Origin: an uncultured Paludibacteraceae bacterium | GTDB lineage: Bacteria > Bacteroidota > Bacteroidia > Bacteroidales > Paludibacteraceae | Direction of reading: 5' to 3' | Length of the DNA stretch: 64,000 nucleotides | Assembly (NCBI GenBank): GCA_964570565.1 | Contig: CAZMYT010000004.1 | Span: 114,256 to 178,255 of the forward strand | Shown: positions 27,185-50,580 of the stretch, piece after piece | How positions within the stretch are numbered: the first letter of the stretch is position 1 | How the letters are laid out: each line of letters begins with the position of its first letter | Position numbers and translations under genes: made by a program | The notes under the pieces: generated by a model | Seen by the model: the letters and a program-made list of their open reading frames with translations, nothing else | What the model was told of the DNA's origin: nothing | The model's database searches: none

Positions 27185-27229
27185 ATTTTTGTATTGTTTT
27201 TTCGAGTTTTTTTACGTATTTTTGCTGTT
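27185..27229 (+). repeat. 45-nt direct repeat, left copy (contains a -7 box)
   Basis: ATTTTTGTATTGTTTTTTCGAGTTTTTTTACGTATTTTTGCTGTT is 44/45 identical to 29493-29537. Confidence 0.95.
27217..27224 (+). promoter_or_regulatory. candidate -7 box TATTTTTG inside the left repeat
   Basis: TAnnTTTG match about 220 nt upstream of the 391-aa ORF. Confidence 0.4.
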
Positions 27230-27443
27230 CACCAGTAAGGGTATGCTTATTATTATATCTTATGTTTCTGTTCTCCTATTGTATTCCTATTATGAAATAA
27301 TGGTGTGTTTGGTGTATTGTAAATTTTCTTGCTTTATTTAGCTAAGGTTGAGCCAAGATGGAGCTATGATCGAGGCGTAATTTTTTATTGCTTTGGGCTA
27401 TCGTTTGCTCTCTAATTGTTTTTTATCCTATTAAACTATACTT

Positions 27444-28619
27444 ATGACTTTTACTCCAGAGTCCAATTTTAATGCCTTTGCCTATTTTGGTAGTCATCAT
27501 GATCAGTATGAACCTGATACGGTTCTTTTAATTGAGAGTTTATTAAACGCCACTATTCGCTATGATTTGAGAACCAATGCCTCCAATATGGGGAAATTGT
27601 GTCGTTGTTATTTAGATTCAGCTAAATCGATTAATCTCTTTGTCACGTACAGTCAGCAAGAGTTTGACCTGTTAAGTCCCGAAAATCTGGCTGAATGCAT
27701 TATGACGGACTCACCTGAGACCACGGAATTGGCACCCAATTTTGATGCTTTTATGGAATTGATTGGTCGCGATGCGACGTTTGTTTGTATGTATGCTGCT
27801 TTGCAAAATTTCCGTGCGAATGGTATTTTGGATTTTGAATCTATGTATGCTAAACCGCCATTCCAAGCGATATTGGCTCGCCGTGAAACTGTGCATGTTC
27901 CTTTGGAAACGTTGGTCACTCTTCATTTTGAAGAGCAGTTTGTGGTCAAATGTGTTCCTGTTGACCATGATTTAAATCATACGTTCGCTATTATTCAAAC
28001 TGGTTTATCTCTGTTTCAGTGGGCTATTCGTACCCCTAAAAGTTATTTATATGTGGTCAAGAAATGTGGACAGGATCTTTTTTTTCCAGATGATAATGAT
28101 CGTATTTTATTTTTACTGTATTTGTTGAATTTGGTACATTACTACGCACCTCGTCAGATGACCGAACGTGATCGTGCAGCTTTAGAGTTTCGATTACAAG
28201 ATATTTATTCTAGATATACGAAAGTGCCATGGGATTTGAAAGAGCTGCATGAGGTGCCAGATGAAGCTATTATAGATGCTGATTTAGAATCGCTTACTGA
28301 TTCAGATGTATCGCAGTGTTTATCGGGTATTACCCTCAATTCTGATGTGAGTAAGTTGGATTTTATACGGGTATTATATGTCTTGTACGAACTTGATTTT
28401 TTTGTCAAAGAGTCTGGTAAAAAGGTGACCAAAAAGGAGTTATTTGCTTTTTTGGCTACTTGGCTCGGTAAAGAGACATTGGCGCATTATGATAAGGATA
28501 TGACCAACAGCTGGAAATCGGATATGAGTGCTCATATCGCTATATTTGATACCATGCGGTCGAAAATGGTAGAATTGGCGACTAACAAAAATGTAGCTAA
28601 CTATAAAAAGATTGAATAA
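27444..28619 (+). CDS. orphan 391-aa protein; C-terminal ~70 aa resemble a winged-helix domain of RteC-type regulators (tentative)
   Basis: Long clean ORF. The C-terminus SKLDFIRVLYVLYELDFFVKESGKKVTKKELFAFLATWLG has the same residue pattern I remember from RteC C-termini (SK.DLVELIYAL...G...NG K...KEIA..F). This is from memory only. Confidence 0.5.
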   Translation: MTFTPESNFNAFAYFGSHHDQYEPDTVLLIESLLNATIRYDLRTNASNMGKLCRCYLDSAKSINLFVTYSQQEFDLLSPENLAECIMTDSPETTELAPNFDAFMELIGRDATFVCMYAALQNFRANGILDFESMYAKPPFQAILARRETVHVPLETLVTLHFEEQFVVKCVPVDHDLNHTFAIIQTGLSLFQWAIRTPKSYLYVVKKCGQDLFFPDDNDRILFLLYLLNLVHYYAPRQMTERDRAALEFRLQDIYSRYTKVPWDLKELHEVPDEAIIDADLESLTDSDVSQCLSGITLNSDVSKLDFIRVLYVLYELDFFVKESGKKVTKKELFAFLATWLGKETLAHYDKDMTNSWKSDMSAHIAIFDTMRSKMVELATNKNVANYKKIE

Positions 28620-28625
28620 ATGAGT

Positions 28626-28683
28626 CAAAAAGCTAGGGTAAAATCTCACCAAGGCTAGGGTTGTTGGTTCAAAAGCTAGGGTA
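28626..28683 (+). repeat. three phased direct repeats, core GCTAGGGT (iteron-like)
   Basis: GCTAGGGT at 28632, 28654 and 28675 (spacing 22 and 21 nt). Copies 1 and 3 extend to TCAAAAGCTAGGGTA. Confidence 0.8.
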
Positions 28684-28720
28684 GCGGCGATTAACCTTGT
28701 GGGTTTTGTTACTGTTTATG

Positions 28721-29368: not shown

Positions 29369-29492
29369 CTTTTTATGAGTCCATGCTCTGTGGATGCGTT
29401 GGCAACCTATATTGAAGGGGATGGCAGGTGTCTATTGTTAGCGTTATGCTTAATCCTCCTTGTTCAGGGCTTTTAGTGTACGAAAATAATAG

Positions 29493-29537
29493 ATTTTTGT
29501 ATTGTTTTTTCGAGTTTATTTACGTATTTTTGCTGTT
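29493..29537 (+). repeat. 45-nt direct repeat, right copy (promoter of the glycan locus)
   Basis: 44/45 identical to 27185-27229. Sequence outside the 45 nt is unrelated. Confidence 0.95.
29525..29532 (+). promoter_or_regulatory. candidate -7 box TATTTTTG upstream of wzm
   Basis: TAnnTTTG match about 160 nt upstream of the wzm ATG. Confidence 0.4.
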
Positions 29538-33336: not shown

Positions 33337-34410
33337 ATGGAGTTAACACTAAGTATATTAGTTATTTCTCATAATCAAAAAGAGCTTTTGCGAAGATGTA
33401 TTACATCTTTGTTGCAGCAACAACTGTCGTGTTCCTATGAGATTATAATTAGTGATGATCGCTCTAGTGATGGTACTTGGGAATTAATAGAAGCCTATCA
33501 ACAAAAATATCCAAACTTAATTTTTGGGTATCATTGTAATTCTGATGAATGTAATCCAGCTAATCGTTCGGAACGTTGTGGATGGAATAAAGCCAATGCT
33601 TATAGACACGCCAAAGGGAAATATTTTGTTAATATTGATGCCGATGATTATTTGAAAAGTGATGACATTTATCAATTACAAGTGGATGCTCTAGAAGCTC
33701 GCCCTCAATGTAGTATGTGTCAACAACAGATATTGACTGTTAATGATGGAGAAGATTTGTCAAAAGGGAGAGTTTGGCCGATTAGCCCATTGATAACATC
33801 AGGGAATATCTTGACTCCAACCGATATTATTTTGAAAGGATTGCGTGCTTTGAATCAGGGATATATGATGCGTAGAAATCCCACTGTTGATCCTATTGAA
33901 TTGTATGGAAAACATTTTGATGATACGGTGATTACATTACATCATTTGCAATATGGTAATGTGGTGGTAGTGGAACGAGCTGACTATGTATGGGTTCAAT
34001 ATGCATCCAGTATCAATTCATCACTTAAAAATATGGATCGAGATGTTGTTATAGGTTTGTTACCGATACATCATATCCTTTTTATACCAACGTTTGCAGG
34101 GTTGTTTATGAAAGATGGTCTCCGTGATTTGGTTCATTTATTTAAGCAATCTTCTTATCATACAATGATATTAACATCTGATACAACCAATTTTCTGAAC
34201 GAATTTAAAGGATTTTTGTTTCGCTATTATACTTCATCAAGTCCTTCTTTTGGGTATAAATTGCGTATGTTAATGGTTCGCTATCTGGCGTTACTAATCA
34301 AAAAATATAAAATGGATTATGCTTGGGCATATCAGCTACTATTTGCTATGATGGTTGACGTTAAAAGTGCTCATAAAATAACAAAAGAACAATGGAAAAT
34401 AAACCCATAA
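33337..34410 (+). CDS. glycosyltransferase family 2
   Basis: LSILVISHNQ...ISDDRSSDGT...DADDY GT-A motifs. Confidence 0.8.
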   Translation: MELTLSILVISHNQKELLRRCITSLLQQQLSCSYEIIISDDRSSDGTWELIEAYQQKYPNLIFGYHCNSDECNPANRSERCGWNKANAYRHAKGKYFVNIDADDYLKSDDIYQLQVDALEARPQCSMCQQQILTVNDGEDLSKGRVWPISPLITSGNILTPTDIILKGLRALNQGYMMRRNPTVDPIELYGKHFDDTVITLHHLQYGNVVVVERADYVWVQYASSINSSLKNMDRDVVIGLLPIHHILFIPTFAGLFMKDGLRDLVHLFKQSSYHTMILTSDTTNFLNEFKGFLFRYYTSSSPSFGYKLRMLMVRYLALLIKKYKMDYAWAYQLLFAMMVDVKSAHKITKEQWKINP

Positions 34411-35504
34411 CCGTTACATCGCCTTTATTACCTGATTTAGACGAATTTATTCCTTATTTAAAACAAATTTGGGATAGTAAATGGATTACCAATAATGGCG
34501 ACTTTCATCAACAGTTGGAACAGGCTTTATGTGAGTACTTGGGCGTAGACTATATCAGTGTATTTACCAATGGTACATTGCCTCTGATTACTGCTTTTCA
34601 AGCGCTTAATATGCGTAAAGGCGAGGTAATTACCACGCCTTATAGCTTTGTGGCAACCACGCATGCTATTTGGTGGAATGGTTTAACACCCGTTTTTGTG
34701 GATGTAGATCCTATTACAGGCAACATTGATCCTGACAAAATAGAAGCCGCCATTACCGAAAATACAGTAGCCATTATGCCAGTGCACGTCTATGGAAATC
34801 CATGTGATACCGAGAAAATTGAAGCCCTAGCAAAGCGCTATAATTTGAAGGTTATTTATGATGCAGCCCATGCATTTGGGGTGAAGGTAGATGGAAAAAG
34901 TATTTTACAACATGGTGATATGAGCACGTTGAGTTTTCATGCTACAAAAGTGTTTAACACCATTGAAGGAGGAGCGTTGATTTGTCACAGTGCCGAAATG
35001 AAACAACAAATTGATTACCTCAAGAATTTCGGTTTTGAAGATGAGGTTACCGTAATGGCACCTGGCATTAACTCCAAGATGGATGAAATTAGAGCGGCTT
35101 ATGGTTTTTTAAATTTACGACAAGTAGATAGAGCTATCGCTCATCGTAAACAGGTCGCCCAAGACTATCGAGAAGGTCTGAAAAATATCAAAGGAATTAC
35201 CTGCATGCACGAAATAGAGGGTGTTTCGCATAATTATAGTTATTTTCCTATATTTGTAAATGAACGTGAATACGGTATGAGTCGCGATGCGCTTTACGAA
35301 AAAATGAAAGCTGCTAATGTATTAGGGCGGAGGTATTTTTACCCACTCATTAGTACATTTTCGCCTTATTCGTCTTTGCCATCGTCTAATAGTGATAATT
35401 TGCCTATCGCCAATAATCTGGCAAATGCTGTTATTTGCTTACCAATGCATGCCGAACTAACCGATGAAGATGTTGATAGAGTCTTATCGTCGATTGTTAG
35501 GTGA
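34392..35504 (+). CDS. DegT/DnrJ/EryC1/StrS family sugar aminotransferase
   Basis: PLLPDLDEF start, DAAHAFG and SFHATKVFNTIEGG (PLP lysine present). Confidence 0.85.
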   Translation: MENKPITVTSPLLPDLDEFIPYLKQIWDSKWITNNGDFHQQLEQALCEYLGVDYISVFTNGTLPLITAFQALNMRKGEVITTPYSFVATTHAIWWNGLTPVFVDVDPITGNIDPDKIEAAITENTVAIMPVHVYGNPCDTEKIEALAKRYNLKVIYDAAHAFGVKVDGKSILQHGDMSTLSFHATKVFNTIEGGALICHSAEMKQQIDYLKNFGFEDEVTVMAPGINSKMDEIRAAYGFLNLRQVDRAIAHRKQVAQDYREGLKNIKGITCMHEIEGVSHNYSYFPIFVNEREYGMSRDALYEKMKAANVLGRRYFYPLISTFSPYSSLPSSNSDNLPIANNLANAVICLPMHAELTDEDVDRVLSSIVR

Positions 35505-35600
35505 AAGGTGAAAAGGTTAGTGGTTAATGGGGAACAAGTGAATGTTAAGAAGAGGTTAAAGGTGAAGAGTTAATGGTTAATGGGGAACAGGTTAAGAGGA
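35497..35600 (+). repeat. word-repeat array L1 (GGTGAA/GGTTAA/GGTTAATGGGGAAC words, two ~47-nt degenerate tandem units)
   Basis: Read directly. It has 12 stop triplets and closes all three frames. The DegT stop codon lies in the first word. Confidence 0.85.
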
Positions 35601-35606
35601 AATTAT

Positions 35607-35981
35607 ATGGCAGAAGCATATTCCTATAGAAAGTTGGATGTTTATATCAATGCTAAAGTGTTGGTAAAAACGGTCTATAACCATTTAAGAAAGTTTCCGA
35701 AAGAGGAAAATTATGCCTTATGCGACCAGTTACGTCGTTCTGTTATTTCAGTACCGTCTAACATTGCAGAAGGAATGGGACGTTTTTCATCCAAGGAACA
35801 AATTCATTTTTTAGAAATAGCTTTTGGTTCATTGATGGAAGTACAATGTCAACTTGACATTTCGTGTGATTTGGGATATATTACAATAGAAGAATTTGAA
35901 GTCATTAATAACGATATAAATAATATAGCAAAACAATTATCAGGGTTACGTTCGTTAAGAATACGCGCCCTTAACCTTTAA
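35607..35981 (+). CDS. four-helix-bundle protein (23S rRNA intervening-sequence protein / Avd-like family)
   Basis: YRKLDVY...QLRRSVISVPSNIAEG...EV..QL family pattern. Start at ATG 35607. The stop codon lies inside repeat R1. Confidence 0.8.
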   Translation: MAEAYSYRKLDVYINAKVLVKTVYNHLRKFPKEENYALCDQLRRSVISVPSNIAEGMGRFSSKEQIHFLEIAFGSLMEVQCQLDISCDLGYITIEEFEVINNDINNIAKQLSGLRSLRIRALNL

Positions 35982-36000
35982 CCCTTAACCCATAACCTTT
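35968..36000 (-). repeat. word-repeat arm R1 (CCCTTAACCTTTAACCCTTAACCCATAACCTTT)
   Basis: Its reverse complement matches 36735-36767 at 28/33 positions. Confidence 0.85.
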
Positions 36001-36009
36001 TTAATAATT

Positions 36010-36699
36010 ATGAAACTTGCCATCATGCAGCCCTATTTTATGCCATATATTGGTTATTTCCAGACAATGGCAGCGGTTGATACGTATGTTGTGTATGATG
36101 ATGTGCAGTATATTAAGGGCGGTTGGGTGAGCCATAATAATATCATTATTGGTGGTGAGAAAAAGATGTTTACTATTATACTTAAAGGAGCAAGTCCTAA
36201 TAAGTTGTTCAACGAGGTAGAGATTGGCGATGATTTTAAGAAATTTGAACGTATGTTGCAAAGTGCGTATGCTAAAGCGCCTTATTTTAGTGAAGTGATG
36301 CCATTATTGCATGCCATTTTTACTTATGATGAAAAATCGTTGGGGAAATTTTTGCTTCACAGTTATCAAGTTTTGTTGGATTATTGGGAAATTGGAACAC
36401 AATTGGTACTATCGTCAGAGTTAGAAAAAGATGGTACCCTGCGCGGTCAAGATAAAGTATTGAATATTTGTAAAAATCTCCAAGCCACAGAGTATTATAA
36501 TGCCATTGGTGGACAAGACTTGTATGATAAACAGACATTTGCACAACATGGGATTGAGCTTAGTTTTGTACAGACACTGGTGGTTTCCTATTCACAGTTT
36601 GCGCCTGAATTTATACCTAATTTGTCTATTATCGATGTGTTAATGCATAATGGCAAAGCCGGAACAAAGCAGTTGTTAAATGCCTATAAGTTGATATGA
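36010..36699 (+). CDS. WbqC family protein
   Basis: MKLAIMQPYFMPYIGYFQ... is the characteristic WbqC N-terminus; 229 aa. Confidence 0.8.
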   Translation: MKLAIMQPYFMPYIGYFQTMAAVDTYVVYDDVQYIKGGWVSHNNIIIGGEKKMFTIILKGASPNKLFNEVEIGDDFKKFERMLQSAYAKAPYFSEVMPLLHAIFTYDEKSLGKFLLHSYQVLLDYWEIGTQLVLSSELEKDGTLRGQDKVLNICKNLQATEYYNAIGGQDLYDKQTFAQHGIELSFVQTLVVSYSQFAPEFIPNLSIIDVLMHNGKAGTKQLLNAYKLI

Positions 36700-36730
36700 A
36701 AATAGCGTTAGATGTGGAATGTTCAAAAAA

Positions 36731-36773
36731 GGTGAAAGGTTATGGGTGAAGGGTTATGGGTTAGAGGTTAACC
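36731..36773 (+). repeat. word-repeat arm L2 (GGTGAAAGGTTATGGGTGAAGGGTTATGGGTTAGAGGTTAACC)
   Basis: Inverted partner of R1 (28/33). Confidence 0.85.
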
Positions 36774-36828
36774 GCATAGTGATGGTCTATTGCTTACTAA
36801 ACATCCTATTCGTCATTCTTGACTTATT

Positions 36829-36900
36829 AATTAACCACTCAACACTCAATAATTTTCTCCATTAACCCGTAACTATTAGCCATTAACCCAATTAAACACC
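36829..36900 (-). repeat. word-repeat arm R2 (CCATTAACCC / TTAACCACTC words)
   Basis: It is the same word family as L1 in reverse-complement orientation. Best match: TTTTCTCCATTAACCC is complementary to TGGTTAATGGGGAACA at 13/16 positions. Confidence 0.7.
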
Positions 36901-36919
36901 AAACACTAAAACAATTAAA

Positions 36920-37801
36920 ATGACGCCTTTACTTAGCATAGTAACCATAACCTACAATCATGAACCGTTTATTGCTAAAACGATAGAAGGTGTGTTGATG
37001 CAGCAAGTCAAATTTCCTATAGAATTGATTATTGCTGAAGATTGTAGTACCGATGGAACTCGTGCTATTTGCCAGCGGTATGCGGAGGAATATCCAGAAT
37101 TAATTCGTTTGATAACGTCCGATTCAAACGTGGGTGCCATAGCTAACGAGCGACGTGCCATGCTGGCTGCTCGTGGCAAATACATTGCGTTTTGCGAAGG
37201 CGACGATTATTGGACTGATCCTTTGAAATTGCAAAAACAGGTCGATTTTTTAGAATCACATCCCGATTATAGTGTTACGTTCCACCGCTGTAAGCATTAT
37301 AATGTTGAAACACAGGAAGTGGTTGACGACAATTGTGGTTACTTGTTTACCGATAATACCCAATTAGGGGTAGATATTACAACGGCTCAGTTTTTCAAAA
37401 CGTGGATTACACAGCCTTTAACGATGGTGTATCGGGTGGCTTCGTTCGATTTAGATGTTGCTTTGCAGTACACATATTATCGTGATATGCACCAAATTTA
37501 TCATCTATTACAAACAGGTAAAGGCTATTTGTTTGCTTTTGATGGCGGTGTACGAATTAGACATGAAGGTGGTATGGCAGGTAAAGCAACCTTATTAGAA
37601 CAAAGTTGGTCAGGTATGACTATAGCAGAAGAGCTTTTTCGCATAAATAAAACTCAGGACACTAAGGTGTATTACCAGAACATGTTGCAATTTTATATTT
37701 ATCAAGCACCCACTAAGTGGGATAAAATTAAAAAGTCTATCAAGTTGTTTGTATTAGATCATAATTTATTATCACTACTTAAGAATATATATAAACATTA
37801 A
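36920..37801 (+). CDS. glycosyltransferase family 2
   Basis: [11 protein letters not shown]...AEDCSTDGT...EGDDYW. Confidence 0.8.
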
Positions 37802-45981: not shown

Positions 45982-46968
45982 ATGCTTTTATCCATCATCA
46001 TACCCGTTTACAATGTAGCGCCTTACGTTGAGAAATGTTTGGCGAGTTTATTGTGTCAAGGGCTGGCGCCGTCTGACTATGAATTGATTGTGGTCAACGA
46101 TGGTTCCACCGATGAGTCGTACACGATAGCTAAAACATTTTTGGAGCATCAAGCTAGCCTTGCGCCTTTCACCTTTCACCTGATTTCCCAACCCAATGGT
46201 GGATTGAGTGCTGCTCGCAACACAGGTATTCGTCACGCTAAAGGAAAATACATCCAGTTTGTCGATTCCGACGATTATTTAGAACCGCATGTATTGGGTG
46301 CGTTGGTTCAAAAGATGGAGCGAGAACAGTTGGATGTTTTGCGATTCAACTATCAAAATGTGAACGAACAGTACCACGTGTTTGAGCCGTATAAAGCCAT
46401 GAAACCATTTGTCGATTACCGCGATGAGATATGCGATGGTTTAACTTTTCTCACAGAGCGCTTGGGCTACGGCTGTTATGCGGTGCAGTTTATGATACGC
46501 GCTACACTGTTGCAAGCCGAAGTACATCACTTTAAAGCGGGCATCTATTTTGAAGATACCGAATGGACGCCTCGTTTATTGGTGCGTGCACAGCGTGTAA
46601 CTTCCGTAGATACGATGGTGTACAACTATTTGATGCGCACAGGTTCCATTACGCAAAGTGTGGATCCTGAAAAAACTAAAAAGTTGCTGAACGATAAATT
46701 GTTACTTATCGACTCTATGAAACAGCAAGCCCAACAACAGCCCGATAAACGTTGGTTTTTTGGCATGATAGCAGCCACCGTTATTTCGCTGCTTGGTTAT
46801 GTAGGAGCCGACTTTTATCCTCACAGGGCTTTTTATTTCAAAGCGTTACGCGAAAAAATGATTTATCCATTGTCTATGTATCATAGTTCTAAAGTAGCAA
46901 AGCGCAAAATACGGGTTATAAATCTGTCGCCTGCCTTGTTTTGTTGGCTGTTACGCGTTAAACGTTAA
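45982..46968 (+). CDS. glycosyltransferase family 2
   Basis: LSIIIPVYNV...VNDGSTDES...VDSDDY. Its stop codon lies in the first word of the following repeat array. Confidence 0.8.
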   Translation: MLLSIIIPVYNVAPYVEKCLASLLCQGLAPSDYELIVVNDGSTDESYTIAKTFLEHQASLAPFTFHLISQPNGGLSAARNTGIRHAKGKYIQFVDSDDYLEPHVLGALVQKMEREQLDVLRFNYQNVNEQYHVFEPYKAMKPFVDYRDEICDGLTFLTERLGYGCYAVQFMIRATLLQAEVHHFKAGIYFEDTEWTPRLLVRAQRVTSVDTMVYNYLMRTGSITQSVDPEKTKKLLNDKLLLIDSMKQQAQQQPDKRWFFGMIAATVISLLGYVGADFYPHRAFYFKALREKMIYPLSMYHSSKVAKRKIRVINLSPALFCWLLRVKR

Positions 46969-47165
46969 GGGTTAGGGATGAAGGGTTAAACGTTGAACGT
47001 TTAGCGTATAGCGTGAAGAAACTACGTTTAGCGAATAACGAGCAACGTTAAGGGTGAGGGATGAAGGGTTAAAGGTTAAGGGTTTAAAGAACGACATTAA
47101 ACGTTGAACGTTTAGCGTTTAGCGTGCAGTAACTACGAGCAACGATTAACGAGCAACGATAAAAC
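46962..47165 (+). repeat. tandem composite repeat (unit 1 about 83 nt, unit 2 about 121 nt): GGGTTA-type words followed by AACGTT/TAGCG words
   Basis: ACGTTAAGGGT(T/G)AGGGATGAAGGGTTAAA and AAACGTTGAACGTTTAGCGT(A/T)TAGCGTG each occur twice. The perfect palindrome AAACGTT-G-AACGTTT is at 46988-47002 and 47099-47113. Confidence 0.85.
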
Positions 47166-47300: not shown

Positions 47301-47927
47301 ATGAATACACTCTCAGAAATAGGAGCGGTTCCAGTTGATTTTTCGCTACTGAAGGCGATGTATCCTAATCACAAATCGATACATAATAAAATCAGTGAGT
47401 TAGAAAATGCAGGAAAACTTATTCGCTTGAAAAAAGGTTTGTATGTGGTTGCTCCCCAAGAGAGTGGCATGCTGTTATCGTCAGAGTTGATAGCCAATCA
47501 TTTATATGGTCCATCTTATGTTTCCAAAGAGTCTGCTTTACGTTATTATGGCTTAATTCCTGAACAGGTTTATACGCTGTATTCAATGACCACAAAACAT
47601 GCTAGAAGTTTTACAAATGCATTAGGCACATTTGATTATACACACTGTTCGAACGATTATTTTACCATAGGTATTAGGCAAGAATCGAAAGAAGGTTTGT
47701 TTTTTTTAATGGCAACTCCAGAGAAAGCTTTGTGCGACTTAATTATAAACACACCCAACCTAAATCTCCGTTATCAAAAGGAAATCAGAACCTATTTAGA
47801 AGAGGATATACGGTTTGACATGCAGGCATTTTTTAAGATGGATGTGGAAATTCTAAAACAATGTCTGTTGTATGGTAAAAAAAAGCCTATCATTACCAAT
47901 TTAATTCACCTCATCAGAAAATCATGA
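47301..47927 (+). CDS. abiEi: type IV toxin-antitoxin system AbiEi family antitoxin
   Basis: N-terminal wHTH-like ...ISELENAGKLIRLKKGLYV... and ...YVSKESALRYYGLIPE... patterns typical of AbiEi. ATGA overlap with the next gene. Confidence 0.75.
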   Translation: MNTLSEIGAVPVDFSLLKAMYPNHKSIHNKISELENAGKLIRLKKGLYVVAPQESGMLLSSELIANHLYGPSYVSKESALRYYGLIPEQVYTLYSMTTKHARSFTNALGTFDYTHCSNDYFTIGIRQESKEGLFFLMATPEKALCDLIINTPNLNLRYQKEIRTYLEEDIRFDMQAFFKMDVEILKQCLLYGKKKPIITNLIHLIRKS

Positions 47928-48748
47928 ATCCAATGTTTGAACAAATGGTTTCGTCCTATCAAATGGTGACCGATAAGGATAGACGAAATGCCATGTATGA
48001 AGTTATGCAAAAAATAACGTTAGCTGGACTTTATCGAGGAGGTTTTTTCGATAAAGCTGCGTTTTATGGCGGAACTTGCTTACGGATTTTTCATAACATG
48101 GAGCGATTTTCAGAAGATATGGATTTTTCTCTTTTGGTGGCCGATGAGTCGTTTAAAATTGAACACTATTTTCCCGCTATTATCGAAGAGTTTCATTTGG
48201 TAGGCCGAGAGGTGGAGATTACTAAAAAAGATAAAACGCAGTTCAGTAAAGTTGATTCAGCCTTCTTAAAGGACGATACAGATGTGTATGATGTGGTATT
48301 TAAGACTGAGAAAAGTTTGAAAATAAAAATAGAGGTGGATACCCAACCTCCGTTGCAATTTCAAACTGAACATAAATTGTTATTGCGTCCCTATTCGTTT
48401 ATGACACGCTGTTTTACACTACCTAATTTATATGCGGGGAAAATGCACGCATTAGTTTTTAGAACCTGGAAAAATCGTGTAAAAGGCCGTGATTGGTATG
48501 ACTTTGAATGGTACGTTCGCCATGAAGTTCCCTTAAATTTTACTCATCTACAAGAACGTATTAGGGTTTTAAATGGCTTGGAGATGGATGAAAACCAATT
48601 CTTACAACTCCTTAAGGAGCGGTTAGCTTCCACTGATATCAAACAGGTGAAACAGGATGTGGCACCTTTTATAAAAAAACCTAAAGCATTGGAAATTTGG
48701 ACTAATAACTATTTTTTGCAGTTGGCTGACCTGATTAAATTTGAATAA
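47924..48748 (+). CDS. abiEii: AbiEii/AbiGii family nucleotidyltransferase toxin
   Basis: FYGGTCLRIFHNMERFSEDMDFSL (GGT.L...R.SEDxDF) motif and KIEVDT block; 274 aa. Confidence 0.8.
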   Translation: MNPMFEQMVSSYQMVTDKDRRNAMYEVMQKITLAGLYRGGFFDKAAFYGGTCLRIFHNMERFSEDMDFSLLVADESFKIEHYFPAIIEEFHLVGREVEITKKDKTQFSKVDSAFLKDDTDVYDVVFKTEKSLKIKIEVDTQPPLQFQTEHKLLLRPYSFMTRCFTLPNLYAGKMHALVFRTWKNRVKGRDWYDFEWYVRHEVPLNFTHLQERIRVLNGLEMDENQFLQLLKERLASTDIKQVKQDVAPFIKKPKALEIWTNNYFLQLADLIKFE

Positions 48749-49871: not shown

Positions 49872-49873
49872 AG

Positions 49874-50003
49874 CATTGATTATTGATAATAGATTATTGA
49901 TGTACAAAACACAATGCCATTGATTATTGATAATAGATTATTGATTTATCCATAATCCATTTATCCATAATCTATATATTGATTTATCTATAATTTTAAT
50001 ATT
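49874..50003 (+). repeat. upstream repeat module of four-helix-bundle gene 2 (CATTGATTATTGATAATAGATTATTGAT x2, then ATCCATAATC words)
   Basis: A 44-nt unit at 49874 is repeated from 49918. The tail TTATCCATAATCCATTTATCCATAATCTATATAT recurs downstream of the gene. Confidence 0.85.
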
Positions 50004-50375
50004 TTGAATGACAAACAAATAGCGTTTCGTGACAAGTGTATGGCGTTTGCTGTGTGTGTGGTGAAGTTGCGTAGTTATTTGTGTGAGCAAAAGCATGAAC
50101 ACGATATATCTCGACAATTATTGCGGAGTGGAACAGCCATTGGAGCTTTACAACGAGAGGCTTATCATGCTGAAAGTGATGCCGATTTAGTTCATAAATT
50201 AGCGATAGCTCAAAAAGAGTGTAACGAATCTCTGTATTGGATTGAATTACTGTATCTTACAAATTATATAACCAAAGCAGAATCGGAAAGTTTATCGAAT
50301 GATGCATTAGAGCTCTTAAAAATGCTTACAGCCAGTATTCAAACCCTGAAAAAACGTATAAAACAAAAACAATAA
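50004..50375 (+). CDS. four-helix-bundle protein (23S rRNA IVS protein / Avd-like family), probable TTG start
   Basis: QLLRSGTAIGALQREAYHAES..D..HKLAIAQKECNESLYWIELL family pattern. There is no in-frame ATG before Met12. Confidence 0.75.
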   Translation: MNDKQIAFRDKCMAFAVCVVKLRSYLCEQKHEHDISRQLLRSGTAIGALQREAYHAESDADLVHKLAIAQKECNESLYWIELLYLTNYITKAESESLSNDALELLKMLTASIQTLKKRIKQKQ

Positions 50376-50580
50376 TATTGATTATTGATAATAGATTATC
50401 GATGTACAAAACACAAAAACAATATTGATTATTGATAATAGATTATCGATGTACAAAACACAATAACAACATTGATTATTGATTTATCTATAATCCATTC
50501 ATCCATAATCTATATATCAATTCATCCATAATCAATTATCTATATATCCATAATCCATTTTTCTATATTTTTAATTAATT
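50375..50580 (+). repeat. downstream repeat module of four-helix-bundle gene 2 (two 47-nt tandem units, a partial unit, then ATCCATAATC tail)
   Basis: ATATTGATTATTGATAATAGATTATCGATGTACAAAACACAA occurs at 50375 and 50422. The partial unit and tail are a direct repeat of the upstream module. Confidence 0.85.

Follow-up and report, generated by a model that had tools for sequence, protein, structure and literature searches.

Two word-array insertions at gene junctions of a Paludibacteraceae polysaccharide operon and their likeness to rRNA intervening sequences

A 64,000-nucleotide stretch of an uncultured Paludibacteraceae genome (contig CAZMYT010000004.1, positions 114,256 to 178,255; hereafter the window) contains a long co-directional polysaccharide locus. 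In it a DegT-family aminotransferase gene, a four-helix-bundle (4HB) gene of the 23S rRNA intervening sequence (IVS) protein family, wbqC and a family 2 glycosyltransferase (GT2) gene follow one another in this order. The spacers between these genes hold four arrays of short words that alternate in orientation. Comparison with related loci indicates that a single element type has been inserted twice here, at two junctions of a glycan operon whose genes are closely packed. One insertion carries the 4HB gene and the other has no open reading frame (ORF). The best explanation is that elements of this type are small cassettes, dependent on the transcript of the host operon and made up of a G/A-rich array of degenerate 7-nt words, a cargo and a complementary C-rich array.

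The repeats in the window are defined by five words (GGTTAA, GGGTTA, GGTGAA, GGTTAT and GGTTAG), counted on both strands. Across the 64 kb these words form 6 clusters where Markov-simulated sequence gives an expectation of 0.12. The clusters lie in the four arms (L1 holding two of them) and at 46969-46989 and nowhere else, and no similar arrays are seen in the remaining spacers of the window. The four-arm word pattern is real and far from chance. A preliminary description, made from the letters of the sequence, had placed four arms of alternating orientation here; all four are present at those places and in those orientations.

The 5' arm of the first cassette, L1 (35497-35606; all features named here lie on the plus strand), is a G/A-rich array of GGTGAAA, GGTTAGT, GGTTAAT and similar words, built of two ~53-nt units and followed by an A-rich leader up to the 4HB ATG. 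Segments of the two units repeat at 35516-35542 and 35569-35595 (89% identical) and at 35499-35515 and 35553-35569; the two degenerate tandem units proposed earlier are thus present, but at a spacing of 53-54 nt and not of ~47 nt. The 3' arm of this cassette, R1 (35966-36009), is the complementary C-rich array, reading CCCTTAA x4 on the plus strand (a period-7 array of 4.3 copies at 35968-35997), and the wbqC ATG follows 8-10 nt beyond its end. At the next junction the ORF-less element has a G-rich 5' arm, L2 (36720-36775; GGTGAAAGGTTATG x2.9, with period 14 at 36731-36770), and a C-rich 3' arm, R2 (36855-36905; CCATTAACCC, GTAAC and similar words), whose end is ~15 nt before the ATG of the next glycosyltransferase gene. 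The minus-orientation words of R2 are concentrated at 36855-36890, so that the arm stands while a start at 36829 was generous. As had been noticed, two stop codons lie within repeat words. The last codons and stop of the DegT gene (AGG TGA, with the TGA at 35502-35504) are in the first L1 word, AGGTGAA, and the TAA of the 4HB gene (35979-35981) is part of CCTTTAACCC in R1, whose words also encode the C-terminal residues of the 4HB protein.

The arms are complementary in several combinations. R1 and L2 match as an imperfect inverted repeat over 29 nt at 90% (35972-36000 with 36735-36763) and over 35 nt at 80%, and L1 and R2 match at 79% over 34 nt, both in agreement with the pairings first reported. 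As RNA, R1:L2 gives a duplex of 34 bp and -47 kcal/mol (z -6.6), the most regular helix in the window. The pairings within each junction give -37 to -38 kcal/mol for L1:R1 (z -3.9) and -35.3 kcal/mol for L2:R2 (z -2.5), and in the minimum-free-energy (MFE) fold of 35480-36020 the L1:R1 stem closes the cassette. A nested fold of the entire 1.4-kb region was obtained without a shuffle control and is weak evidence. One word family is shared by all four arms, which lets any plus arm pair with any minus arm, and thus R1 with L2 and L1 with R2 as well.

The arrangement of the same genes in 80 loci encoding WbqC relatives bears on what was inserted. Most of the WbqC loci examined have neither arrays nor a 4HB gene, and their genes for DegT, WbqC and the following glycosyltransferase directly adjoin or overlap one another (ATGA and similar); such loci include L012, L015, L018, L023, L028, L033 and L034, and in relatives without the insertion the DegT stop overlaps the wbqC ATG. 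Profile search finds a 4HB gene in 5 of the 80 loci, in addition to which L009 has the end of a 4HB gene at its contig edge. Since most relatives show overlap or abutment without arms, the window lineage carries two insertions, and wbqC is the resident gene. Insertion 1, at the DegT-wbqC junction, measures ~505 nt and consists of L1, the 4HB gene and R1 (35497-36009). Insertion 2, at the wbqC-GT2 junction, measures ~220 nt and consists of L2, a loop of ~80 nt and R2 (36720-36905). Loci L003-L006, L086 and L087, whose 4HB proteins are 82-97% identical, have the same arrangement as the window. The orientation of wbqC is identical in every locus seen, and the window 4HB gene and wbqC keep the same orientation in all orthologous loci.

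Among these orthologous loci the arms gain and lose units. L1 has from 2 to 5 units, R1 varies by 7-nt units, and L2 varies by 14-nt units (one unit fewer in L005, extra words in L087). The loop of the ORF-less element (36776-36854) is 99-100% identical across L005, L007, L086 and L087, in which the genes flanking it are 71-92% identical. At junction 2 of L003 there is a hairpin of wholly different words (GTTTAAT/GTTTAGT against ATTAAAC/CTAAAC; fold z -5.2, duplex z -8.2). L007 is a natural recombinant, with homology to the window starting at 36007, 3 nt before the wbqC ATG; it has an ORF-less CTAAAC-type hairpin at junction 1 and the window's element at junction 2. Pairing within each junction is kept in L007 (z -7.8 and -2.4), whereas pairing of the R1 equivalent with L2 around wbqC is lost (z 0.0). 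In the comparison of orthologous loci called for in the preliminary description, what was inserted is the two junction elements and not wbqC.

In L087, R1 aligns over its full length with the reverse complement of L2, and the two arms carry an exact 19-mer, GGGTTAATTAAAACAGGTT, as an inverted repeat seen nowhere else in 165 loci; R1 and L2 therefore exchange sequence or are co-selected. In our reading the four arms would be one word family evolving in concert, and insertion still took place by junction element, of which there are two. R1 and L2 are truly related, and the alternative pairings (R1:L2 and L1:R2) are a consequence of shared words and concerted evolution; the enclosure of wbqC is not the organising principle. 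Two other identities for the ORF-less element were considered. Its loop contains no remnant of a 4HB gene, with no homology even at E<=100, and the same result dismisses ORF-less loops as decayed 4HB genes. Among 165 loci the element occurs only at this junction, and on this ground it is probably no multi-copy MITE (a miniature transposable element with inverted repeats).

The related loci offer some observations on the side. In L003 (3535-3560) the GGTTAA-type R1 is followed by a short tail of another word type (AACACTAAACGCTAAAC), which matches the arm preceding wbqC in both L007 and L009 and looks like the replacement of one cassette type by another at a single junction. In L008 (615-1650; WbqC ~92% identical at the nucleotide level) an extra gene of ~1 kb between wbqC and the glycosyltransferase gene replaces the junction-2 hairpin, another sign of the junction as a hot spot of change in gene content. 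The DegT orthologue of L087 (1181-1634) has an in-frame insertion of ~143 amino acids, flanked by AHAFGVKV and GDMSTLSFHATK. A GC-rich hairpin (CCCCCTCTAACTCCCCCGCAGGGGGAGG) comes before this insertion, which to the eye resembles a DUF559/Vsr-like endonuclease domain.

We turn to the evidence for exchange, which is clearest between the window and L086. Here the DegT gene is 71% identical, wbqC 72%, and the distal part of GT2 71-72% or less, with saturated synonymous sites (synonymous divergence, dS, 2.2-2.5 or not computable). Identity rises to 96% in the 4HB gene, where dS is 0.13, and to 92-99% in the junction-2 element. The high-identity tracts are two, one beginning in the last L1 unit and reaching ~60 nt into wbqC and the other running from ~30 nt before the wbqC stop to ~330 nt into GT2, and the recombination breakpoints are at or near the arms. 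This pattern looks like recombination tracts centred on the elements and not like clean transposition. Since the bodies of DegT and GT2 have diverged as far as wbqC has, it is the elements that were exchanged, and not wbqC. No target-site duplication is definable for the junction elements because the high-identity tracts run past the element ends. In the wider sample, 4HB genes 86-98% identical occur in unrelated flanks, sometimes with the downstream arm attached. A 4HB cassette of a Sodaliphilus metagenome-assembled genome (L116, 2183-2620) and its 92% identical counterpart in a Prevotellaceae metagenome-assembled genome (L123, 2430-2868) lie in opposite orientations relative to flanking genes that are homologous between the two (82-90%), the inverted part running from -55 to +5 around the gene; the arms therefore do recombine, by DNA inversion on an evolutionary timescale. 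All these comparisons indicate that the cassettes move or are exchanged between diverged loci.

Does the design of the window cassette hold for the family at large? We collected 80 genome loci encoding relatives of the protein, all from Bacteroidales, and scored the flanks of 81 4HB genes. Most of these genes have a G/A-rich short-word array before them and a complementary C-rich array after them, and the 3' end of the 4HB ORF with its stop is usually inside the downstream array. The words are specific to the locus (GGATTAG/CCCTAA, GAACGAATGAACG/CGTTAAACG, GGTTACAGG/CCCGTAACC and TTGAAGG/CCTTCAA, for example). The upstream flank matches the reverse complement of its own downstream flank with a median score of 27, against 16 across loci; the own pair is the best-scoring one in 21 of the 81 genes, and z exceeds 3 in 53. 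The duplex energy of own flanks is likewise lower (-44.1 against -32.8 kcal/mol, p 9e-8). Clear periods of 7 nt are found in 32 arms and of 8 nt in 12 arms, while 405 shuffles contain no periodic array. The 4HB gene is co-oriented with its upstream neighbour in 71 of 79 cases and with its downstream neighbour in 66 of 79, at median gaps of 90 and 46 nt, and the neighbours are mostly sugar-nucleotide and glycosyltransferase genes (DUF559 is matched by 3 of 123 neighbour ORFs). From these comparisons, the design of array, cargo and complementary array holds for most sampled members of the family.

Relatives of a second 4HB gene in the window, which form a second subfamily, show the same design in non-glycan settings. 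One cassette lies between nqrA and nqrB of a Na+-NQR operon (L169, 1952-2393), with GGTTAGT/ACTAACC arms and a predicted closing stem of ~26 bp. Another, between ruvB and a flippase gene, has a predicted closing stem of ~30 bp (z -3.5); the stems predicted in L169 and L170 are of ~26-30 bp. A third cassette lies amid type I restriction-modification genes of an Anaerolineales genome (L166, 1914-2465), and each of its flanks is a GGTTAGT/ACTAACC hairpin, close to the word type of the window. The nqrA-nqrB and Anaerolineales cassettes show that the habit reaches beyond both glycan loci and Bacteroidota. Co-directional spacers of L003, L007, L141 and L151 hold word hairpins of the ORF-less kind as well, with no 4HB remnant in any of them. 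The G-rich arm is the 5' one in 5 of 5 hairpins listed as ORF-less, one of which (L108) proved to be a 4HB cassette missed in the gene list.

Our best reading of these data is that the elements are IVS-type cassettes whose arms form stems in polycistronic RNA. The analogy with the IVS is the best-supported mechanism, though unproven, and we give it a probability of about one half. According to this proposal, the arms would pair in the polycistronic RNA as an imperfect stem of 25-40 bp that closes off the cassette. The first word supplies the stop of the upstream gene and the last word ends ~10-15 nt before the next ATG; at the base of the stem the stop of one gene and the start of the next would be brought close to each other. 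RNase III would cut the stem, or the stem would at least loop the cassette out. Either event would uncouple the cassette from its neighbours, and in this way the insertion would be tolerated and the 4HB message released.

The known 23S rRNA IVS provides the template for this proposal. In Coxiella it has a 28-bp terminal inverted-repeat stem with a 4HB (S23p) ORF in the loop, and 3-4 tandem heptamers, in strain-variable number, just upstream of the ORF; RNase III cleaves this stem, its 5' cut falling on the first heptamer, and the IVS is regarded as an element that is selfish or was once mobile (PMC4990558). Like the IVS of Leptospira, Coxiella and others, the window cassette has a cargo of family PF05635, sense-oriented and set between terminal inverted repeats that form a predicted closing stem (significant in 53 of the 81 family members), and variable-number heptamer arrays precede the ORF as in Coxiella. 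The IVS resides in a highly or constitutively transcribed unit. Unlike the IVS, the cassette is hosted by the stop/start junction of a protein-coding operon and not by helix 9, 25 or 45 of 23S rRNA, and its arms are long degenerate word arrays where the IVS has a single 28-bp repeat. Its ORF is intact and under purifying selection, while that of Coxiella is decaying and apparently untranslated. Cleavage of the stem by RNase III is experimentally characterised for the Coxiella IVS and is a proposal here. Of four structural features of an IVS that can be assessed, three are present and one, the location in 23S rRNA, is absent, the flanks being DegT and wbqC; because it is not located in rRNA, the element is no rRNA IVS.

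A number of observations weigh against the RNA-stem reading. There is no RNA-specific signature: in aligned arms G.U mismatches (26) are rarer than A.C (53) and G.A (54), and duplex energy does not differ between sense and antisense strands (38 against 43 loci, p 0.26). With neither an excess of G.U nor an advantage of the sense strand, we do not claim selection at the RNA level. Whole-region folds of the window elements are no better than those of shuffles (z -1.2), the arm lengths are very unequal (L1 110-280 nt, R1 35-50 nt), and translating ribosomes would open the stem since the 4HB stop is inside R1. In the family sample, 28 of the 81 cassettes have no significant inverted flanks, and some have direct-repeat flanks or a single arm. 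DNA-level concerted evolution, by slippage and gene conversion, could alone keep the arms complementary; the 19-mer of L087 and arm segments common to R1 and R2 of different loci belong here as well. Of the two readings offered in the preliminary description, the one in which RNA stems make the region an mRNA counterpart to the rRNA IVS is nonetheless the better lead. The shared architecture speaks for that reading and the substitution pattern does not; folding in silico, which it had suggested, returns an L1:R1 stem that closes the MFE fold, but a whole-region z of only -1.2.

The explanations that compete with the RNA stem must be weighed against the same data. The arms may act as DNA, as ends for recombination, inversion or transposition (MITE-like, of an autonomous cassette, or as inverton substrates of Bacteroidales), with RNA stems as a by-product. 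The cassette inverted between L116 and L123, the exact R1/L2 inverted repeat found only in L087, recombination tracts that end in or beside the arms, the same 4HB gene (sometimes with its downstream arm) in unrelated flanks, and the absence of a sense-strand wobble signature in the aligned arms would all be expected. A DNA-level role is a serious rival, though we consider it unlikely. No transposase or recombinase is within the cassette, we know of no DNA-cleaving activity of 4HB proteins, and no target-site duplication is definable. The high-identity tracts reach neighbouring genes (330 nt of the glycosyltransferase gene), as in homologous recombination and not transposition, the cassettes are strongly co-oriented with their operons, the orientation of wbqC is constant in every locus seen, and imperfect arms of unequal length are unlike recombinase sites. 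The other reading of the preliminary description, that R1 and L2 are terminal inverted repeats of a non-autonomous wbqC cassette nested in L1/R2 and shuttling glycan genes, could appeal to R1:L2 as the best helix (34 bp, -47 kcal/mol, z -6.6), to the matched 19-mer in L087, to an R1 equivalent and L2 that are complementary in L009 too, with a different word type, and to a wbqC body 72% identical between the window and L086 where both flanking elements are 91-99% identical. As stated it is very improbable: in most relatives examined wbqC has the same two neighbours but no arms, the bracket is lost in L007 yet the locus is intact, wbqC with arms was not found in another context among 165 loci, and in L086 the DegT and GT2 bodies are diverged like wbqC.

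Two further explanations assign the pairing of the arms a secondary role or none. If the heptamer arrays were cis-regulatory sites for a protein (the 4HB pentamer itself, ribosomal protein S1 or some other factor that binds RNA or DNA) by which translation downstream is adjusted, one would understand why L1 is far longer than a stem needs and has higher-order 53-nt units, why each cassette has its own word type, and why sense-strand stop triplets are enriched in both arms; the last point is given little weight because spacers are ORF-free by definition. There is also a precedent: heptamer direct repeats just before start codons, carrying stops in every frame, are described from Beggiatoaceae, Cyanobacteria and a number of Bacteroidetes, Paludibacter among them (PMC4679880). 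Such sites do not explain why, in 53 of 81 loci, the array after the gene is the reverse complement of that before it, or why both orientations occur in fixed order in ORF-less spacers, and we regard this explanation as quite unlikely. The arrays could instead be neutral by-products, microsatellite-like slippage in spacers from an old insertion with arms that are functionless now, given that unit numbers differ between near-identical loci, that whole-region fold z-scores are weak and that ~1/3 of the cassettes have no significant pairing. Slippage alone, however, makes no matched reverse-complement arrays on either side of a gene, does not account for matched arrays with different words in many lineages and phyla, and does not give the constant G-rich-first polarity; the other spacers of the operon have no arrays. 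Neutrality is for these reasons very unlikely.

The cassette has partial likenesses to several other known systems. As Avd of diversity-generating retroelements, the 4HB protein has a homologous four-helix-bundle fold; Avd has a reverse transcriptase and template and variable repeats nearby, whereas the 4HB neighbours here are DegT and WbqC. Neisseria Correia/NEMIS, ERIC and REP/BIME elements are, like those of the window, short elements with inverted ends in operon spacers that form RNA hairpins (a folding that is predicted here); they are MITE-like and transcribed along with their operons, and Correia/NEMIS is the nearest analogue of the ORF-less junction-2 element. RNase III binds Correia elements and either cleaves or protects them, and these elements alter the expression of adjacent genes (PMC2649163). 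These families have a conserved consensus and many near-identical copies per genome, whereas here each locus has words of its own, the arms are built as tandem arrays, a conserved protein gene is present in most elements, and among 165 loci no multi-copy consensus is found. The intergenic TAACTGA heptamers are 7-nt units oriented to the downstream start, for which translation tuning was proposed; they have stops in three frames, sometimes overlapping the upstream stop, and occur in a few Bacteroidetes including Paludibacter (PMC4679880). The window arrays are likewise tandem 7-nt units in spacers, but the TAACTGA repeats are direct repeats of one word with no reverse-complement partner array, and that paper draws no link to 4HB genes, its text containing neither 'intervening' nor 'four helix' (PMC4679880).

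Integron cassettes are promoterless, single-gene and co-oriented units with an imperfect inverted-repeat hairpin, attC, whose core is the 7-nt GTTRRRY. The 4HB cassettes resemble them as co-oriented single-gene units with imperfect inverted repeats folding as a hairpin. They differ in having arms on both sides of the gene, where an integron cassette has one attC downstream, and in lacking an integrase or a cassette array, being single and scattered in ordinary operons. No conserved GTTRRRY core is seen by inspection at the cassette boundaries. An integron cassette was rejected on these grounds: arrays on both sides, no GTTRRRY boundary, and single cassettes between housekeeping or glycan genes. 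Genes of the 4HB family are also wedged between genes of cas operons; a 4HB gene between cmr3 and cmr2 in Pleurocapsa was read as a functional CRISPR association (PMC3936711). The habit of insertion at junctions would explain the cas-operon 4HB genes too. In the literature searched, which covered few subscription journals, we found no prior description of the 4HB arm-cassette architecture outside rRNA, and none for polysaccharide operons, as the preliminary description had supposed.

The function of PF05635 proteins and the origin of the rRNA IVS have been questions since the early 1990s. The architecture suggests that the rRNA IVS is one case of a widespread operon-invading cassette. A bolder extension of the RNA-stem proposal, which we advance tentatively and rather doubt, is that 4HB cassettes are widespread and hitherto unrecognised self-propagating operon parasites, or 'mRNA intervening sequences'. 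They would home into stop/start junctions of transcribed operons and spread from one diverged locus to another with short co-conversion tracts, an arm stem processed by RNase III would neutralise polarity, and the 4HB protein would take part in spread or processing. If this were true, the classical 23S rRNA IVS would be merely the case of an invaded rRNA operon, and the conserved cassette sequence would be portable homology that promotes mosaic reshuffling of glycan loci. If the IVS design is the normal state of the family in ordinary operons, the rRNA IVS is no longer an oddity and the question becomes testable in culturable Bacteroides and Parabacteroides. Junction insertions would also give a neutral explanation for the 'association' of 4HB genes with cas, restriction-modification, nqr and glycan operons. 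The coincidence of conserved intergenic modules with recombination tracts in surface-polysaccharide loci bears on the origin of glycan diversity, and annotation pipelines could recognise the word arrays, which are now unexplained spacers.

The identities of the proteins are well supported by profile matches. The DegT-family aminotransferase gene, the upstream host gene, is at 34392-35504 (PF01041, E 1e-102). The 4HB gene, cargo of the first cassette, occupies 35607-35981 and encodes 124 amino acids (23S rRNA IVS protein, TIGR02436); its coding part (35607-35978) matches PF05635 at E 8e-36 and 123 bits (cut-off 33.8) and TIGR02436 at E 1e-32 and 112 bits (cut-off 24), and the protein matches PDB 2GSC at E 3e-19. 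The ratio of nonsynonymous to synonymous divergence for the 4HB gene is 0.09-0.25, which is purifying selection, and the protein is therefore used. The resident wbqC, no part of the element, is at 36010-36699 (PF08889, E 3e-66), and GT2, the downstream host gene, at 36920-37801 (PF00535, E 1e-26). The 4HB protein has Avd-related matches (PF22296 bAvd, E 9e-6; phrog_3206, E 5e-8; NF033474, E 3e-9), of which the Avd equivalog model NF033474 scores 37.2 bits, below its cut-off of 80. An Avd component of a diversity-generating retroelement was rejected on this score and because the adjacent genes are those of the aminotransferase, WbqC and glycosyltransferases and not of a reverse transcriptase. 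PADLOC gives no defence-system match for either 4HB protein of the window, and no Rfam family matches 35300-37100 at E<=1. Scans for sigma-70 promoters and terminators, which do not cover Bacteroidetes promoters, find nothing in the arms.

The second 4HB gene of the window (50004-50375; PF05635, E 4e-21; TIGR02436, E 1e-24) is 25% identical to the first and scores 75.8 bits against PF05635 and 86.9 bits against TIGR02436 over 50004-50372. Its upstream flank (49872-50003) has ATTGATT-type words and then ATCCATA-type words, and is therefore itself a hairpin; the downstream flank (50376-50560) has a 47-nt unit x2.7 and then ATCCATA-type words. The two flanks are direct repeats of each other and are also mutually complementary (up:down duplex -54 kcal/mol), and either flank forms a hairpin within itself. 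At 46957-47160, after the stop of a different glycosyltransferase gene, lies a solo array of the first cassette's word family, without a 4HB gene, with GGTTAAG, AACGTTTAGCG and ACGAGCAACGA words in two ~100-nt units. This array has a self-fold of z -4.15, and a C-rich arm to partner it is not seen. Directly after the solo array, inside the polysaccharide locus, is an AbiEi/AbiEii toxin-antitoxin pair (47301-48748; PADLOC E 3e-72 and 2e-114); this module may have replaced the rest of a cassette.

Minor repeats are found elsewhere in the locus. Within the glycosyltransferase coding region at 45982-46968, CCTTTCA x2.4 (46165-46181) is the reverse complement of the L1-opening word AGGTGAAAGG and may be chance. 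At the head of the locus a sequence of ~50 nt, TTTTGTATTGTTTTTTCGAGTTT.TTTACGTATTTTTGCTGTT, occurs twice (~27185-27235 and 29470-29520), upstream of two genes, and the TATTTTTG within it fits the -7 promoter motif of Bacteroidetes. In the spacer after the gene that ends at 28619, (A)GCTAGGGT(A) is present in three spaced copies (28630-28690).

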